From Candidatus Fervidifonticultor sextus (GTDB lineage: Bacteria; Sysuimicrobiota; Sysuimicrobiia; Sysuimicrobiales; Humicultoraceae): a DNA stretch of 64,000 bases. The position numbers were made by a program. This document shows positions 46,301-55,300 of the stretch, piece by piece; position 1 is the stretch's first letter, and the number at the start of each line of letters is the position of its first letter. Location of the stretch: NCBI GenBank assembly GCA_031459875.1, contig JAVKHQ010000002.1, positions 41,965-105,964 on the forward strand. Reading direction: 5' to 3'.

Positions 46301-49300
46301 TGGCCGCCGACATCGCCGGCGGCGCAGCGGCGGGCATGCGGACCCTCTACGTCACCATGCAGCCGCACCCCGGCAACGCCCGGTCCGCCGACGTCCGGGC
46401 CGACGCGGAGGCGGCGACGCTGGAGGAGGCGGAGCGAATCCTGCTGGAGTGGGCGGGGAGGGGCTAGCCGCCCCGGGCGACATCAATGAGACGCTGCAGC
46501 GCCGCCAGCGCGTCGTCCAGCCGGTCGGCGGGAACCAGCAGGTGGTCGTGGTGGAACGACGAGAGCACCCGTGCTTCAATGCCCGCCTCGGCCAGGGCGG
46601 CGGTGACGACCGTGAGGTAGGAGGCTGTGATCAGGTCCACCGTCGCCTCCAGGGTGACGAGCCGGTAGCCGCCCTCCTCCCGGGCCCCCCGGAACTTCGC
46701 GCGCACGCGCGCCCACTCGTCCTCGGCGAGGACAATGGTCTGCTCGTGGGGGAAGAACTGCACGAAGAAGGGGGCGTGCACCTCGGCCATGGCCTTGCGC
46801 ATGCTGACCTCGTAGAACGGGGAGACCCCGACGACCACAAACCCCCGGGGATCGATCCGCAGCGCCGTCGCGGCCAGCAGCCGGGCGATCTCGGGATCTG
46901 TCGGCACGGGATCCGTCTGATGGGGATCCATCGCCAAAGGGCGGTCAGGCGACGGCCCGCAGCGCCTGATCGAAGTCGGCGATCAGGTCGTCGGCGTCTT
47001 CCAGGCCCACCGACACGCGGATCAGGCCCTCGGTGATCCCCACCTGTTCCTGCTCGGCCCTGGGGATCCCGATGCTGGTGGTGGACGCGGGATGCGTGAC
47101 CAGCGTCTCGACCCCGCCCAGGCTGACGGCCAGCAGGCAGAGGCGCAGGGACTCCACGCAGCGCACGCCGGCTGCGAAACCGCCGCGCACCTCGAAGGAC
47201 AGCATGCCGCCGAAGCCGCGCATCTGACGCGAGGCGACGGCGTGGTGAGGGTGGGTGGGGAGCCCCGGATAGTGCACCGCCGCGACCCGGGGGTGGCCGG
47301 CCAGGAACTCCGCCAGCCGCCGGGCGTTCTGGTTGTGCCGCTCGACCCGCAGTCCCAGCGTCTTGAGGCCGCGCAGGAGCAACCAGGCGGCGAACGGATC
47401 GAGCACCGGCCCCAGGATGCGCAGTGTCCGGACGCACCGGCGGATCAGGTCGTGCCGGCCGACGATCACGCCGGCGGTGACGTCCGCATGCCCGCCCAGG
47501 TACTTGGTCGCGCTGTGCACGACCAGGTCGACGCCCAGCGCCAGCGGCGTCTGGTTGAAGGGCGAGGCGAAGGTGTTGTCCGCGATGGTCACCGCGCCGA
47601 CCCGCCGCGCGAGGGCCACCACAGCGGCGATGTCGGTCACCTGGATCAGCGGATTGTTGGGCGTCTCGATGTAGAGCAGCCGCGTGGTCGGCCGCAGCGC
47701 CCGCTCGTACGCGGCGGCGTCCACCGAGTCGATCAGCGTGACCTCCACCCCCCGCCCGGGGAGGATCTCCGTGAACAACTCGTAGGTCGCCTGATACACG
47801 GCGCGCGGAGAGACCACGTGGGTGCCCGGTTCGGTGACCGCAAGCACCGCGGTGGAGATCGCGCCCATCCCGGAGGCGGCCGCCAGGGCGTCCTCCCCGC
47901 CCTCCAGCAGCGCCATCCGTTCTTCGAACAGGCGCGTGGTGGGGTTGCCCCACCGCGTGTAGTACCACCCCTCGCCCCGGTCGGCGCCCAGGGCGGCGCC
48001 CTGCGCCATGGTGTCGAACCGGAATGTAGAGGTCTGGTAGATGGGGAGACTGACCGACTTCAAGGGATCTCGCACCGTCCCGCCGTGGATGGCACGGGTC
48101 TGAAAGCCCTGGAACTCGCCCATGGTCCTGCCTCCGAGGGAGTGCAACATGGCCCCATCGTGGTTCAGTCCTGCGGCGCGATTCCCTGCCGGAGGCACCG
48201 GACCCCGCAGAGCACGGAGGGGCATCCGTCGGCGCCTCCGAAGCATGGGGTGGTGACCCGCATCCTCCTCGTCCGGCACGGCCAGACCGAATGGAACCGC
48301 CAGGAGATCTTCCGCGGGCGGGCAGACGTACCCCCAAGTGAACTCGGGGTCAGGCAGGCGATGGCCGTGGCGGCGCGCCTCGCCAGCGAGGAGATCTCGG
48401 GTGTCTACTCCAGCCCGCTCCGCCGGGCGATGGTCACGGCACACCATGTGGCCGCCGCCGCGGGCCTTGCGCCTCGGGCCGTCGAGGACCTGACGGACAT
48501 GAGCTACGGGGCCTGGGAGGGGCAGCCCCACGACCGGGTCAGAGCGCGATACCCCGACCTCTACGCCCGCTGGCTCTCCGAGCCTCATCGGGTGCGGCCG
48601 CCGGAAGGCGAGACGCTCGCCGAAGTCCGCCGGCGGGCGACCGACGCGGTGCACCGCATCGCCGCCGACCATCCGAACGCCACCGTCGCCGTGGTGTCGC
48701 ATCGCGTGGTCAACAAGGTGCTGCTCTGCGCGACCCTCGGTCTTGGGGACGATGCCTTCTGGCGGATCCGGCAGGAGACCGGCTGTCTGAACGTCCTGGA
48801 GTGGACCGGGGATCCTCCCAGGGTCCTGCTGGTCAACGACGTCTGCCACCTGCGGGGGCTGGAGCGGGACCGATCCGACTTTTGAGGAACGACGGCCTCT
48901 CGCATTGACAGGGCGGCGTGGCCTGGGTACCATGAGCACGAACTGCATGAGGCGATGAGGCTCGCCCCAACTGCCGTCACCGGCTGATAGCCTCTACCCG
49001 AGCGGGTAGGGGCGATTTCTTTTCCGCCGACCGCCCAACCGGATTCCAACAATCACGGGGGATCCCATGACCGACACCTGGACCGCGATGCTGATGGGGA
49101 TGCTCATCTTCGCGGCGGCGCTCGTCTCCGTCGAGGTCGGGATCTCGGTGGCGCTCATCGAGATCATGGTGGGCGTGCTCGCCGGCAACATCCTGGGGCT
49201 GCACACGACTCCCTGGATCGACTTCCTGGCCGGCCTCGGCGGCATCGTCCTGACCTTCCTGGCCGGGGCTGAGGTCGATACCGACATGCTGCGGGAGCAG

Positions 49301-52300: not shown

Positions 52301-55300
52301 CAAGCGTCTCATAGACGGCATGGAACAACTGATCTCGCTGCATGCCTCAGGTGCGCCCCCTAAGGTCCCTCTTCGCCCGCGGGCCGGTCAGACGGCGCGT
52401 CCGCGCCTCCCGTTCCCCCTTCACGGTCGGTCAGGGCCTGCCGCAGACGATCCCGCCGCGCGCGCTGCTGGCGGATCGAGACCTCAAACTGGCGGTTGGA
52501 GCGCTCGAGTCCGGTGAGATTCAACCTCAGCGTGCGGATGGCCTCGTCGGCGATGTAGGCGCGCTGGCGCAGGACCGCCATCTCGGCGCGGGCAGCCATC
52601 CACTCGTTCTGGATCTGCTCGATGGTCAGCGACGGCGCCAGCATGGCGTCAGCGCCGTAGGCCAGCAGGATCTTGACGGCCTCCTGGGGGGTCCAGCCCT
52701 TCATAGCGATGAAGGCGTCGAGGCGGGCCCGCAGACGGTCGGGGAGGCGCACTGCGATCCGCTCAAGGGATGGGAAGATCACCTCACCCATGGAATCCCT
52801 TCCCTCCCCTGGCGGGCAACAGGCTGCGAAACCAGTCTCGGAAGGCACCCCTGCGGCCACGTGGAGGGTCGGCACCGGCGGTCTTTCCGTCGGCCTCCTG
52901 CAGGCGAGTCATCAGCGAAGTGCTCTCATCCCGCAGCGAGCGCATGGTTCGCCGGTTCTGCTGCAGTGCGGCGCCCAGGGCGCGGACGGTCTCGCCCAGT
53001 TCGTGGACGATTTTCTCCGCGGCAATCGTCCGGGCACGCATCGAGACCAACAGTGCCTGGGTCTCGCGCCGCTTCAGTTCCTGCCGCTCGACCTCCGCCT
53101 CCTGACCCGGGTGGCCTTCCAGCGCCTTCCATGCCGCCTCGTCCCGGAGAAACCGGTCGAGGCCCTGCTCGAGCAACCACGGCAGCCCATCATCGGGCTC
53201 TCGCCCGGCGGCATCCAGGGCCCGCCGGATCGTCGCCCAATCCTCTGCCAACAACTCGACCTCAATACTCCCGGGCACCCCCACGCTGCCACCGTCCTGC
53301 GTGCCGACGCTGCAGACCGTGCGCCGAAGCAAAAAGCCCCTACCGACTCTGCCAGTCAGTAGGAGCTATCAGCCTCGCGTCACAAGGCGATCGGCGAGCT
53401 CCATCGCCTATGTACTTGTCGTACATTTATCCTAAATCGCATCGGGCGGCTTGTCAAACGCAGACTCGGGAGAGCCTGCCTCGTCGGCGAGTCCTGTGCG
53501 GCCATCCCTCGGGCCCGCTACGCCTCCCGGCCCACCTCCGCCACTACGATCCCGACCAGAATCAACAAGGCACCAAACGCCTGCCGGCCGCTCAGGACTT
53601 CTCCCAGCAGGAGATACGCGGCCACTGCGGCGGCCACGGGCTCAAAGGTGAACATCAACCCCGTGTGTGAGGGGCTCGTGAACCGCTGCGCCCAGGTCTG
53701 GATCACGAGCGCACCCACGGTGGCGGTGGTCGCCATGAAGAGGATCATCCCCCAAATGCCCGGCGGCGCAGCGACCAGCGCGCGCAGGGGGCGCTCCACG
53801 GACGCCGCCAGCGTACTGAGCGCCGCCACCGAGACCACTTGGGCCGCCGCGAAGGCCAGGGGGTCCAGTGCCGGGCCCAGGCGCCCCACCAGCACAATGT
53901 GCAGGGCGAAGCAGAAAGCGCACCCCAGCACCAGCAGGTCCCCCAGATTGGCGCCGATCGGGTCGTCAAGCGTGAGCAGCGCGAGTCCGGCGCTCGCAGT
54001 GGCGATGCCGGCCCAGACCCGGCCCCGGGGGCGGCGCCGCAGCCACACCGACGCGATCACCGGCACCAGGACGACCGAGAGCCCGGTGATGAACGCGGCC
54101 TTCGAGGCCGTGGTCAGCCGCAATCCGACGGTCTGCAGCCCATACCCGAGGAAGAAGACCACGCCGACCGCGGCGGCCTGTATCCACGGGCGCGCGGGCA
54201 GCGCGGCCCGCCGCGCGGGCGCCACGGCGATCATGAGGACGGCCCCGATGGTGAAACGCGCCGCCAGGTAGGCGAACGGCGGAAGCGCCGCCAGCACCAT
54301 CTTCCCCAGCGGGAAGGTCAGGCCCCAGACGGCAGCCACGGCGAGCAGCGAGAGGTCAGCGGCCAGACGGAGCCGCACCGATCCGCCTGGCCGCAGCGAT
54401 ACGGCCGACATGATGCTCCCCATGATATGGATCGCCCGCGCCGGGCGTCAACGCCACCATGCAGGCTCCGCGCCTGCGGTGGCGGAAATCAGTCCTGCCA
54501 AGACCATGAGCGCCGAGGGTTGGATCGCGACCGGGATCCTGGCCGCCACGCTGGCGGCGTTCGCCTGGGGGCACCTGCGGCCTGAGATCGTGGCCATGGC
54601 CGCGGTCCTGGCCCTGGGACTCTCCGGCGTGGCCGCGCCGGCCCAGGCCTTCGCCGGCTTCGGGGACCCGGTGGTCATCACCATCGCATGCCTCTTTGTG
54701 GTGAGTGCCGGACTGGAGCGCACCGGCATGGCCGTGCGCGCGGCCCGTTCCCTGATCGGGGTCCTGGGATCCCCTTCCGAGGTCACCCTCACCGCGGCCC
54801 TGATGGTCCTCGCCGGTCTGCTGTCCGGAATCATGAACGTCATCGGCGCCATGGCCATGCTCCTGCCTGTGGCGCTGGCGGTCTGCCGGGAGACCGGGAT
54901 CAGCCCCACACGGCTGCTCATGCCGCTCGCGATCGGCAGCCGGCTGGGCGGCGCGCTGACCCTGATCGGCAAGCCGTCGAACCTGATCGCCAACGCCTTC
55001 CTGGTGGACGCAGGCTTTCCCTCGCTGTCGTTCTTCTCGTTCCTGCCCGTCGGCGTCGCGCTGCTGGCCGTGGGCGCGGCCTTCATGGCCACGGCCGGGC
55101 GGCGGCTGCTGCCCGCGCAGGCCGATGGGCCTCCCCCTGCCGGCAGGCCGCCCCGCGCCCTCCCGGAGGTCTACCAGATCCGCGAACGGCTCTTCCGCAT
55201 CCGCGTGGACGAGACCGCGCCGCTGGCCGGCAAGACCCTGACCGAAGCGTCGCTGGGTGAATCCTTCGGCATCACGGTCCTGCGCATCACACGGGGACGT

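Follow-up and report, generated by a model that had tools for sequence, protein, structure and literature searches.

A predicted fluoride-inducible island carrying an MFS transporter, a small-protein pair and DUF6062 in a hot-spring bacterium with no detected CrcB or CLC exporter

The window analysed here is a stretch of 64,000 nucleotides from Candidatus Fervidifonticultor sextus (assembly GCA_031459875.1, contig JAVKHQ010000002.1, positions 41,965-105,964), whose genome measures 3.05 Mb in 67 contigs and whose completeness of 96.19%, which leaves 4% unseen, agrees with the value of about 96% given in the preliminary description of this locus. The DNA runs that hold the island stretch are labelled hot springs metagenome. 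Two fluoride aptamers face each other 4.5 kb apart (Table 1) and, as described before, bracket two operons: the left one encodes a NapA-like exchanger with an in-frame deletion, a Usp and an MFS transporter, and the right one two paralogous small proteins together with a DUF6062 protein.

Table 1. Features of the fluoride-riboswitch island, in window coordinates.
Feature	Positions	Strand	Details
Promoter-like site, left operon	48905..48933	+	TTGACA-17-TACCAT; ends 9 nt before the left aptamer
Fluoride aptamer (left)	48942..49003	+	RF01734, 42.8 bits, E 1.6e-8, model positions 1-64 of 64
Intrinsic terminator, left	48990..49023	+	overlaps aptamer 3' strand; expression platform
NapA-like CPA2 exchanger gene	49067..49954	+	295 aa, in-frame 96-residue internal deletion
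Usp	49951..50391	+	PF00582, 125 bits
MFS transporter	50346..51587	+	MFS_1, 107.7 bits, 413 aa
DUF6062 protein	51612..52343	-	PF19538, 60 bits against a cut-off of 27; 243 aa
Small protein B	52360..52791	-	143 aa; alignment of 23
Small protein A	52784..53284	-	166 aa from GTG 53284; alignment of 22
Intrinsic terminator, right	53325..53367	-	overlaps right aptamer 3' strand
Fluoride aptamer (right)	53353..53417	-	RF01734, 41.2 bits, E 5.6e-8, model positions 1-64 of 64
Promoter-like site, right operon	53429..53457	-	TTGACA-17-TAGGAT

Both convergent aptamers were re-detected with Rfam cmscan above the RF01734 gathering score of 34, and a genome-wide search revealed no third fluoride aptamer. Each has a near-consensus sigma-70-like site 9-12 nt upstream, two such sites being present in positions 48700-53700 against a mean of 0.2 expected from shuffles. 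The left terminator is formed by a 10-pair stem (GCCTCTACCC/GGGTAGGGGC) followed by GATTTCTTTT, with a hairpin energy of -19.8 kcal/mol, and the right one by a 14-pair stem followed by TTTTTGCTT, whose fold (-25.3 kcal/mol, z -4.3) was equalled in none of 200 shuffles. Each operon would be transcribed from its own promoter into its fluoride aptamer, the 3' strand of which doubles as half of the terminator hairpin; this hairpin would form when fluoride is lacking, and with fluoride present the aptamer pseudoknot would keep the 3' strand and let transcription continue (an ON switch). The left switch would release the crippled NapA-like exchanger, the Usp and the intact MFS, and the right one the small pair and DUF6062, so that the island is predicted to be inducible by fluoride.

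The first gene of the left operon had been reported as a short Na+/H+-exchanger-like gene, which can now be specified as a NapA-like gene with an internal deletion: its Na_H_Exchanger match (PF00999, 80.8 bits) covers profile positions 4-224 of 375 only, its relatives measure 390-413 aa, and the missing part corresponds to residues 216-311 of the orthologue in genome G008, approximately three membrane-helix-like segments. The deletion junction is bridged by contigs from two runs. Lacking 96 internal residues, the protein is unlikely to transport and the exchanger is probably dead. The ATG of the Usp gene shares the sequence ATGA with the exchanger stop codon, and in the sister species G004 exchanger and Usp have been deleted outright and the MFS retained. 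The start codon of the MFS gene is uncertain, likeness to its relatives beginning near residue 32.

The three genes of the right operon are translationally coupled, the ATG of small protein B overlapping the end of small protein A, whose start was set with the help of its orthologues in G004 and G008. Neither small protein matched a Pfam family; they are paralogues (hhalign 97.1%, E 6.6e-11) and their genes are always adjacent. In small protein B helices span residues 18-31, 35-54 and 57-126, the last being a 70-residue helix. Its Foldseek list consists almost entirely of ribbon-helix-helix (RHH) proteins, albeit at E 0.46 or worse, and profile matches to RelB (E 0.008) and RelB/DinJ (E 0.055) were obtained. 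The coiled coil of the preliminary description can be refined: four weak, independent signals suggest that a probable RHH head precedes it. The DUF6062 protein is all-helical and internally duplicated (its halves align with hhalign 97.6%; model pLDDT 94.5) and contains two CxxC...CxxH sites (Cys3His), in which C19, C22, C57, H60, C130, C133 and C167 are invariant among 90 sequences and H170 shows at least 90% conservation; metal binding is suggested by these conserved Cys and His residues only. As before, fold searches found no structural relative of DUF6062, so there is no function to borrow. Elsewhere the domain is joined to other proteins, in one 696-aa protein to a whole enolase and in a cluster of 149 members to GTPases.

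It had been stated that this genome possesses neither CrcB nor CLC, and this holds: no CRCB match was obtained even at E<=1, and the best Voltage_CLC match reached 10.8 bits, below the cut-off. Within the genus (g1), CrcB is found in neither this genome nor any of the five relatives, which also have no CLC, and in the family only 1 of 33 other genomes has CrcB or CLC. Across the phylum CrcB occurs in 6 of 94 genomes, the same count as before, CLC in 14 and fluoride aptamers in 42, and 27 of these 42 aptamer-bearing genomes (a hand count) have neither exporter. On the evidence of such searches, neither Fluc/CrcB nor CLC is present in this genome or the rest of its genus, and most genomes of the phylum lack both as well.

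DUF6062 recurs in the phylum, in 21 of 94 genomes rather than the 24 counted earlier, and its link to the aptamer is confirmed with revised numbers: 18 of the 21 genes (19 if a 22-bit match is included) have a same-strand aptamer 0.1-4 kb upstream, the earlier figure being 13 of 20; all such counts overstate the support because the relatives' genomes are not independent. Three loci described as having the aptamer downstream additionally carry a weaker 28-bit aptamer upstream of the small genes. The claim that the link extends beyond the phylum is borne out by independent cases in Spirochaetota and Chloroflexota. In two Spirochaetota genomes (5.3-5.4 Mb) DUF6062 is the first gene behind the sole aptamer, which ends 133-147 nt upstream of the gene's matched region, one locus reading aptamer-DUF6062-enolase-exchanger. 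In Chloroflexota the arrangements comprise aptamer-DUF6062-DUF190/CBS-small-protein homologue-pyrophosphatase-like (G370), a Dynamin_N::DUF6062 fusion behind an aptamer (G308) and an MFS gene, a 30-bit aptamer and then DUF6062 (G110). Most DUF6062 genes, as noted previously, have no aptamer nearby; among the 30 best-scoring Chloroflexota loci 1 has an aptamer at the Rfam cut-off and 2 if the 30-bit match is included.

The tie to the aptamer is as tight for the MFS clade and the small-protein family as for DUF6062. A same-strand aptamer precedes 22 of the 27 phylum copies of the MFS, 6 of 20 MFS loci in Chloroflexota are aptamer-linked, and the window's MFS shares 65% identity over 382 aa with a Chloroflexota MFS whose gene immediately follows an aptamer. 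DUF6062 adjoins the MFS in most phylum loci and in six Chloroflexota genomes (G110, G395, G262, G254, G194 and G390). The small-protein family occurs in the phylum and in one Chloroflexota locus, the G370 operon. Judged from these gene neighbourhoods, the fluoride regulon of at least two or three phyla repeatedly includes the MFS clade, the small pair and DUF6062, and each family is a candidate for a fluoride role.

We lean, with modest confidence, towards the following roles within the fluoride-inducible island. The MFS would be its working membrane component and would most likely transport fluoride itself or an ion linked to fluoride stress. As a DNA-binding RHH/coiled-coil dimer, the small pair would spread the fluoride response to genes without an aptamer, and DUF6062, itself unlikely to be an enzyme or transporter, would be a cytoplasmic, probably zinc-stabilised helical adaptor acting on fluoride-sensitive Mg-dependent enzymes (enolase, NTPases).

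A possible but clearly less probable explanation is that the MFS clade represents a third kind of fluoride exporter that replaces Fluc/CLC-F in the phylum, with DUF6062 and the small pair as accessory or regulatory components. The MFS is the sole intact transporter of the island, it survives the deletion in G004, and its ties to aptamers and DUF6062, together with the many aptamer-bearing phylum genomes devoid of a known exporter, fit such a role. However, known exporters are usually mutually exclusive, as stated for CrcB and CLC-F in the excerpted text of PMC11139923, whereas in Chloroflexota the MFS accompanies CrcB (40/57 versus 114/244, odds ratio 2.7), and at least eight genomes have crcB beside it, both genes often sharing a cluster or operon (aptamer-crcB-MFS in G370), which argues against a simple substitute exporter. 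No solved transporter matched the MFS in sequence. DUF6062, in turn, shows no relation to CrcB in 301 Chloroflexota genomes (47/95 versus 107/206, odds ratio 0.91), and this lack of anticorrelation counts against a simple replacement exporter as well.

Somewhat more doubtful is the suggestion that the right operon is purely regulatory, the RHH pair binding DNA and DUF6062 serving as its metal- or redox-sensing partner, presumably comparable to zinc anti-sigma factors or to NikR's metal-binding half. The translational coupling, the hints of an RHH head, the two Cys3His sites and the small-protein homologue inside the G370 operon are all in keeping with it, but in Spirochaetota DUF6062 follows aptamers although the small pair is missing, it is fused to GTPase or enolase elsewhere, and the small pair precedes the MFS without DUF6062 in G080, G084, G087, G090 and G082.

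It is improbable that a classical exporter is hidden in the unassembled 4% and that the island is a usual auxiliary regulon for pH homeostasis and stress proteins. The incomplete assembly would allow it, and fluoride regulons are known to include exchangers and Usp as auxiliary members (excerpts of PMC11139923 and PMC5533749), but known exporters are missing from the genus and nearly so from the family, and each of the genome's two aptamers is already assigned to an operon of the island; in four of the CrcB-bearing relatives (G083, G085, G086 and G024) crcB immediately follows an aptamer. Least probable of all is that DUF6062 is unrelated to fluoride and travels with the MFS or near aptamers by chance, as its many aptamer-free members and indifference to CrcB might suggest, since it lies directly behind aptamers in three phyla and four gene contexts without the MFS, the two Spirochaetota cases having an estimated chance of about 2e-5 per genome.

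A hot-spring bacterium without either known fluoride exporter possesses a fluoride-switched island, and the three families that recur behind fluoride switches in distant bacteria make promising candidates for as yet unknown fluoride defences. DUF6062 was absent from the literature searched, a comparison to which the gene lists of Baker et al. 2012 and Breaker 2012 did not belong, and no publication was found that presents the small pair or, as judged from titles and abstract openings, the MFS clade as fluoride-regulon members. This variant of the fluoride regulon is real and new, its three member families being unreported in the literature searched.

Several known systems offer points of comparison. 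The full-length exchanger orthologue of a sister species resembles NapA of Thermus thermophilus (4bwz, a CPA2 Na+/H+ antiporter; E 8e-9, residues 22-354), from which the window's copy differs by its deletion. The small proteins share with RHH regulators bearing helical extensions (RelB, ParG, NikR, MatP) an N-terminal extended strand segment, two short helices and a long helix, with a Foldseek rmsd of 1.6 Å over 41 residues to ParG, but they form a paralogous pair with a 70-residue helix, no single score is significant and DNA binding is putative. Bacterial dynamin-like GTPases carry the same DUF6062 domain C-terminal to Dynamin_N, one such fusion lying behind a fluoride aptamer, whereas the window's DUF6062 stands alone. 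Fluc/CrcB and CLC-F occupy the same physiological place, being the gene class first expected behind a fluoride aptamer, and have no homologue here; according to excerpts of PMC11139923, more than 85% of reference genomes have one or the other and those without both tend to be reduced symbionts, in contrast to this 3-Mb genome from hot-spring-labelled runs. Known fluoride-riboswitch operons, as far as the excerpts of PMC5533749 and PMC11139923 extend, use the same aptamer family and a terminator-type ON switch, with Usp and Na+/H+-type exchangers as established members (exchangers being the second commonest class tied to the riboswitch, PMC11139923) and the FRM island of Enterobacter cloacae reading ppaC-uspA-eno-gpmA-crcB (PMC5533749). 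Relatives of the present island also contain enolase, pyrophosphatase, MutS-like and hydrogenlyase-like genes, and the window's operons differ from the known ones in having no crcB or CLC-F and in carrying three additional families.

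Both operons of the island are preceded by a fluoride riboswitch of family RF01734, one in front of the genes for a NapA-like exchanger, a universal stress protein (Usp) and an MFS transporter on the forward strand, the other in front of those for small proteins A and B and DUF6062 on the reverse strand, and the two operons converge with their stop codons 24 nt apart. Each aptamer covers the full model and exceeds the gathering score of 34 bits, and a genome-wide search found no fluoride aptamers besides these two. The only sigma-70-like sites in 48700-53700 lie directly before them, with a mean of 0.2 in shuffled sequence. 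In both leaders the left arm of a terminator stem is the 3' strand of the aptamer, so that the two structures form a competing expression platform, and a predicted switch mechanism is well supported at each.

Positions of regulatory elements and genes in the window and in loci (L-numbers) of comparison genomes (G-numbers)
Feature	Sequence	Position	Strand	Description
Fluoride aptamer, left	window	48942-49003	+	Rfam RF01734, 42.8 bits, model positions 1-64 of 64
Fluoride aptamer, right	window	53353-53417	-	Rfam RF01734, 41.2 bits, model positions 1-64 of 64
Promoter, left	window	just upstream of left aptamer	+	sigma-70-like, TTGACA-17-TACCAT
Promoter, right	window	just upstream of right aptamer	-	sigma-70-like, TTGACA-17-TAGGAT
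Terminator stem, left	window	starts at 48990, inside aptamer	+	10 pairs, -19.8 kcal/mol, then U-run
Terminator stem, right	window	starts at 53367, inside aptamer	-	14 pairs, -25.3 kcal/mol, z -4.3, then U-run
FMN riboswitch	window	583-730	-	92.5 bits (cut-off 66.2); 23-nt insertion in first hairpin loop
EamA-family transporter gene	window	53518-54423	-	ends about 60 nt upstream of right promoter; 91% conserved in G004; no aptamer in front
Remnant of left aptamer region	L071 (G004)	5425-5660 (= window 48895-49125)		second aptamer stem lost; terminator and promoter altered
Small A and B as a single ORF	L074 (G091:C32)	7975-8844	-	290 aa
Aptamer, Dynamin_N::DUF6062 fusion, NACHT protein	L158 (G308:C30)	4209-6224	-	fusion 621 aa, NACHT protein 904 aa
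Three tandem phage-integrase-family genes	L082 (Spirochaetota)	6056-9197	+	between DUF6062 and 5'-truncated exchanger
c-di-GMP-I riboswitch	L082 (Spirochaetota)	478-569
Three more small genes	L076	9713-10117		same strand, after small pair-DUF6062-MFS; also in L073 (G038, G039)
Membrane H+-pyrophosphatase gene	L065 (G092:C33)	8078-10435		813 bits; downstream of aptamer
Membrane H+-pyrophosphatase gene	L110 (G067:C18)			downstream of aptamer
MoxR-DUF58-DUF4129	L106 (G071:C12)			directly behind aptamer
MoxR-DUF58-DUF4129	L066 (G069:C8)			directly behind aptamer
MoxR-DUF58-DUF4129	L105 (G064:C60)			directly behind aptamer
MoxR-DUF58-DUF4129	L107 (G065:C10)			directly behind aptamer
MoxR-DUF58-DUF4129	L109 (G067:C250)			directly behind aptamer

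The exchanger, at 295 aa, lacks a complete transporter core (about 390 aa), its match to Na_H_Exchanger (PF00999; 80.8 bits, cut-off 26.2) being limited to profile positions 4-224 of 375, and all other copies in the phylum measure 390-413 aa. The orthologue of the sister species G008 aligns to NapA (4bwz) over residues 22-354 (E 8e-9), and relative to it the window gene is missing 291 bp in frame, a 96-residue deletion (residues 216-311 in G008 numbering) that removes about three membrane-helix-like segments. Four DNA runs, all from one study, contain this stretch, for which no RNA run is listed. Contigs of two runs bridge the junction without difference, and the deletion is therefore no artefact of a single assembly. 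Judged by these alignments, the window exchanger is a deletion derivative, and one of the island's six genes is probably non-functional; the preliminary description, which took the six to be the whole predicted fluoride response of the genome, stands for the set as defined by the aptamers and has to be qualified in this respect. The Usp contains a full-length domain (PF00582, 125 bits, profile positions 3-141 of 141) and its ATG overlaps the exchanger stop codon. In the second sister species, G004 (91% identical), a 1215-bp deletion, the joint of which is also present in a contig of run X3, takes out the exchanger gene from codon 18 onwards along with almost the whole of Usp, bringing the MFS gene directly behind a remnant in which the left aptamer is undetected at E<=0.1. 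The changes in this leader, together with the new position of the MFS gene, suggest that the MFS in G004 may have escaped fluoride control. The MFS and the entire right operon are retained in both the window species and G004, and the deletions in each therefore indicate that the exchanger-Usp part is decaying in the genus.

Two bacterial fluoride exporters, Fluc/CrcB and CLC-F, are to our knowledge the only ones known. In a six-frame search of the genome (96.19% complete), CRCB (PF02537) had no match at E<=1; a control search detected this family in 11 of 14 reference genomes. For Voltage_CLC (PF00654) the top match reaches 10.8 bits, below the 24.8-bit cut-off, and CrcB and CLC are also both absent from the five other genomes of the genus. 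Across the phylum sample, fluoride aptamers occur in 42 of 94 genomes, CrcB in 6 and CLC in 14 (the unpublished genome G024 is among the six with CrcB and the 42 with aptamers), and a hand count from the three tables leaves 27 of the 42 aptamer-bearing genomes with neither exporter, so that something else must handle fluoride. Genomes with neither exporter tend, according to the available portion of a review (PMC11139923), to be reduced symbionts.

The MFS protein is the strongest candidate for carrying out the membrane step, because it is the only intact transporter in the island and has been kept while its neighbours decay. Its match to MFS_1 (PF07690; 107.7 bits, residues 56-375 on profile positions 11-346 of 347) covers both halves. 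Of the 94 phylum genomes, 27 carry one copy each of the clade (54-100% identity), and by coordinates 22 of these copies have a same-strand aptamer upstream; the other five include G034, with a 22-bit match, and the decayed remnant of G004, while in G083 and G085 the gene is convergent with a crcB driven by an aptamer, and no aptamer was found at the G009 copy. In Chloroflexota the clade is present in 57 of 301 genomes, the copy of G390 sharing 65% identity over 382 residues with that of the window, and an aptamer lies within 1.5 kb at 8 of the best 20 MFS loci (same-strand and upstream in 6). CrcB is encoded in 40/57 Chloroflexota genomes with the MFS versus 114/244 without it (odds ratio 2.7, naive p 0.002, related genomes not being independent and the tables taking in the unpublished G136 and G278), and the MFS adjoins crcB in at least 8 genomes. 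This frequent pairing with crcB argues against the MFS acting as a simple substitute channel.

DUF6062 (PF19538; 60 bits, cut-off 27; residues 16-235 on profile positions 17-238 of 243) belongs to a family of 2430 representatives at 50% clustering. It contains two CxxC...CxxH motifs, of which C19, C22, C57, H60, C130, C133 and C167 are invariant in 90 aligned sequences and H170 is kept in at least 90% of them. Its halves align to each other (hhalign 97.6%, E 3e-12), CxxC on CxxC and CxxH on CxxH, and the AlphaFold model is all-helical (pLDDT 94.5, pTM 0.87). The domain also occurs as tandem doubles (about 470-545 aa) and fused to dynamin-like GTPases. Searches for a similar solved structure returned none (in the PDB, Foldseek gave a best E of 0.32 and a profile search nothing below E 0.1; VIA-align wide reached at most Z 4.8), PADLOC and NCBIfam gave no match, no relatives were found on viral contigs, and a library search yielded no paper bearing the name. 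The two Cys3His sites at helix starts, the varied fusion partners and the lack of enzyme-like features suggest that DUF6062 may be a metal-stabilised adaptor. A complex prediction of small A, small B and DUF6062 scored 0.00 against a mark of 0.32, which speaks neither for nor against an assembly.

The family is present in 21 of 94 phylum genomes, and coordinates place a same-strand aptamer 124-3967 nt upstream of 18 of the 21 genes, the remaining three including a copy cut by a contig end (G011). A 22-bit aptamer match precedes the first small gene of G034 by 27 nt, and no aptamer was found beside the G086 gene, sensitive scan included; aptamers scoring below the threshold, at 28-31 bits, still have the conserved GCGAUGG...CUGAU..CUCCUAC core. 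Gene order varies: DUF6062 comes last in exchanger-Usp-MFS-DUF6062 operons (G050, G002, G047), with the small pair on the opposite strand behind its own weak aptamer, stands directly after the aptamer in G071, follows MoxR-DUF58-DUF4129 in G069, and is a tandem 527-aa form behind an aptamer in G067. The product of the last of the three more small genes in L076 and L073 is YtxH-like and has an apolipoprotein-like helix. A related-locus search with the single DUF6062 query P0036 returned 6 loci; the DUF6062 of L083, from Candidatus Fervidifonticultor quartus (Ca. Sysuimicrobiota in NCBI taxonomy), has 31% identity to this query, and close homologues of the window protein bear the name 'Armatimonadota bacterium'.

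Outside the phylum, two Spirochaetota genomes each have a single aptamer directly before DUF6062, followed in one operon by enolase and an exchanger and in the other by three inserted integrase genes and a truncated exchanger; CrcB is absent from both and no CLC was found in one of them (G096). In Chloroflexota, DUF6062 is present in 95 of 301 sampled genomes, and a scan of the 30 best-scoring loci (flanks of 1.5 kb for 29 and 5 kb for that of G098) gave an aptamer at the Rfam cut-off in one, G370 (aptamer-DUF6062-DUF190/CBS-163-aa protein-pyrophosphatase-like), and a 30-bit match in one further locus, G110 (MFS-aptamer-DUF6062). Three more loci were picked for DUF6062 within 10 kb of crcB and are therefore no random sample: the fusion locus of G308, G390, where two DUF6062 genes lie beside aptamer-MFS-aptamer-exchanger-CrcB-DUF190/CBS, and G366 (L157), where a DUF6062-like gene followed by MoxR-DUF58 is divergent from aptamer-crcB. 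The G308 cluster also contains a MutS_V-like gene, DUF190/CBS and crcB, and in the Chloroflexota loci L084 and L085 the genes for a TatA-domain/apolipoprotein-like protein and a Lon-like protease are transcribed away from DUF6062. A 696-aa protein combining DUF6062 with a complete enolase is represented by one record only and might reflect two neighbouring genes read as one. As a CrcB stand-in DUF6062 was rejected for Chloroflexota, CrcB being found in 47/95 genomes with and 107/206 without it (p 0.71).

Small A and small B, two ORFs without any Pfam family, are paralogous (hhalign 97.1%, E 6.6e-11); their genes lie side by side in every case, the stop codon of one mostly overlapping the start codon of the next, and their single ORF in G091 is either a natural fusion or the result of a lost stop codon. 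Small B is modelled with residues 1-17 extended, helices 18-31 and 35-54, and then a 70-residue helix. A ribbon-helix-helix head is hinted at by four weak signals: a RelB/DinJ match (E 0.055), a RelB match by profile (E 0.008), a NikA-like lead at 0.86 from an atlas search with small B whose other results were unnamed clusters, and Foldseek hits to small B that are nearly all ribbon-helix-helix proteins (rmsd 1.6-3.3 Å over 40-50 residues; E 0.46-2). The 163-aa protein of the G370 operon is a further member of this family (hhalign 95.9%, E 5.9e-9), and in G080, G084, G087, G090 and G082 the pair, or at least one member passing the ORF filter, stands before the MFS with DUF6062 missing. Most simply, the pair would be a second-tier regulator.

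At the level of gene context, membership of the MFS clade, DUF6062 and the small family in a fluoride regulon is well supported. For DUF6062 an accessory cytoplasmic role is favoured, because its aptamer link does not depend on the MFS, it is tied to enolase twice, most of the family is aptamer-free, and it does not track CrcB. Enolase is a classic fluoride target. A more far-reaching reading, which is considered rather unlikely, is that the aptamer-linked MFS, DUF6062 and ribbon-helix-helix pair would constitute an unrecognised fluoride resistance system, the defence of a whole free-living phylum without Fluc or CLC-F, with the MFS as a third kind of exporter and DUF6062 as a metal-dependent protector of enolase and other fluoride-sensitive enzymes. 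The island offers three unstudied candidates, the MFS clade, DUF6062 and the small DNA-binding-like pair, and the aptamer link spans phyla; should one of them prove to be an exporter or enzyme protector, fluoride biology would gain a new mechanism and the engineering of organofluorine metabolism a new part.

The ORFs downstream of 73 phylum aptamers were clustered, and 31 proteins (representatives of larger clusters and several singletons) were run against Pfam. The NapA-like exchanger is the first gene after most strong aptamers, MutS_V-like proteins account for 25 ORFs, and Usp, a hydrogenlyase/Mrp-like set and H+-pyrophosphatase also recur; all five are classes already known for this riboswitch from the portions available of PMC11139923, PMC2864571 and PMC5533749. 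In G092 the H+-pyrophosphatase gene comes after the small pair and DUF6062, and the five genomes with a MoxR-type AAA_3 ATPase-DUF58-DUF4129 set directly behind aptamers belong to one family of the phylum. A term search of the whole text of the main paper on the phylum (PMC11604079) found neither fluoride nor riboswitch. The MFS clade and the small pair with DUF6062 recur behind phylum aptamers as well and are absent from the class lists in the portions of the published sources available, as are the likewise recurring MoxR AAA-DUF58-DUF4129 trio and a chromate transporter. In their architecture, both leaders of the island have the same aptamer/terminator layout as the transcriptional ON design that is classical for this riboswitch class, as set out in the available part of Weinberg et al. 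2010 (PMC2864571).
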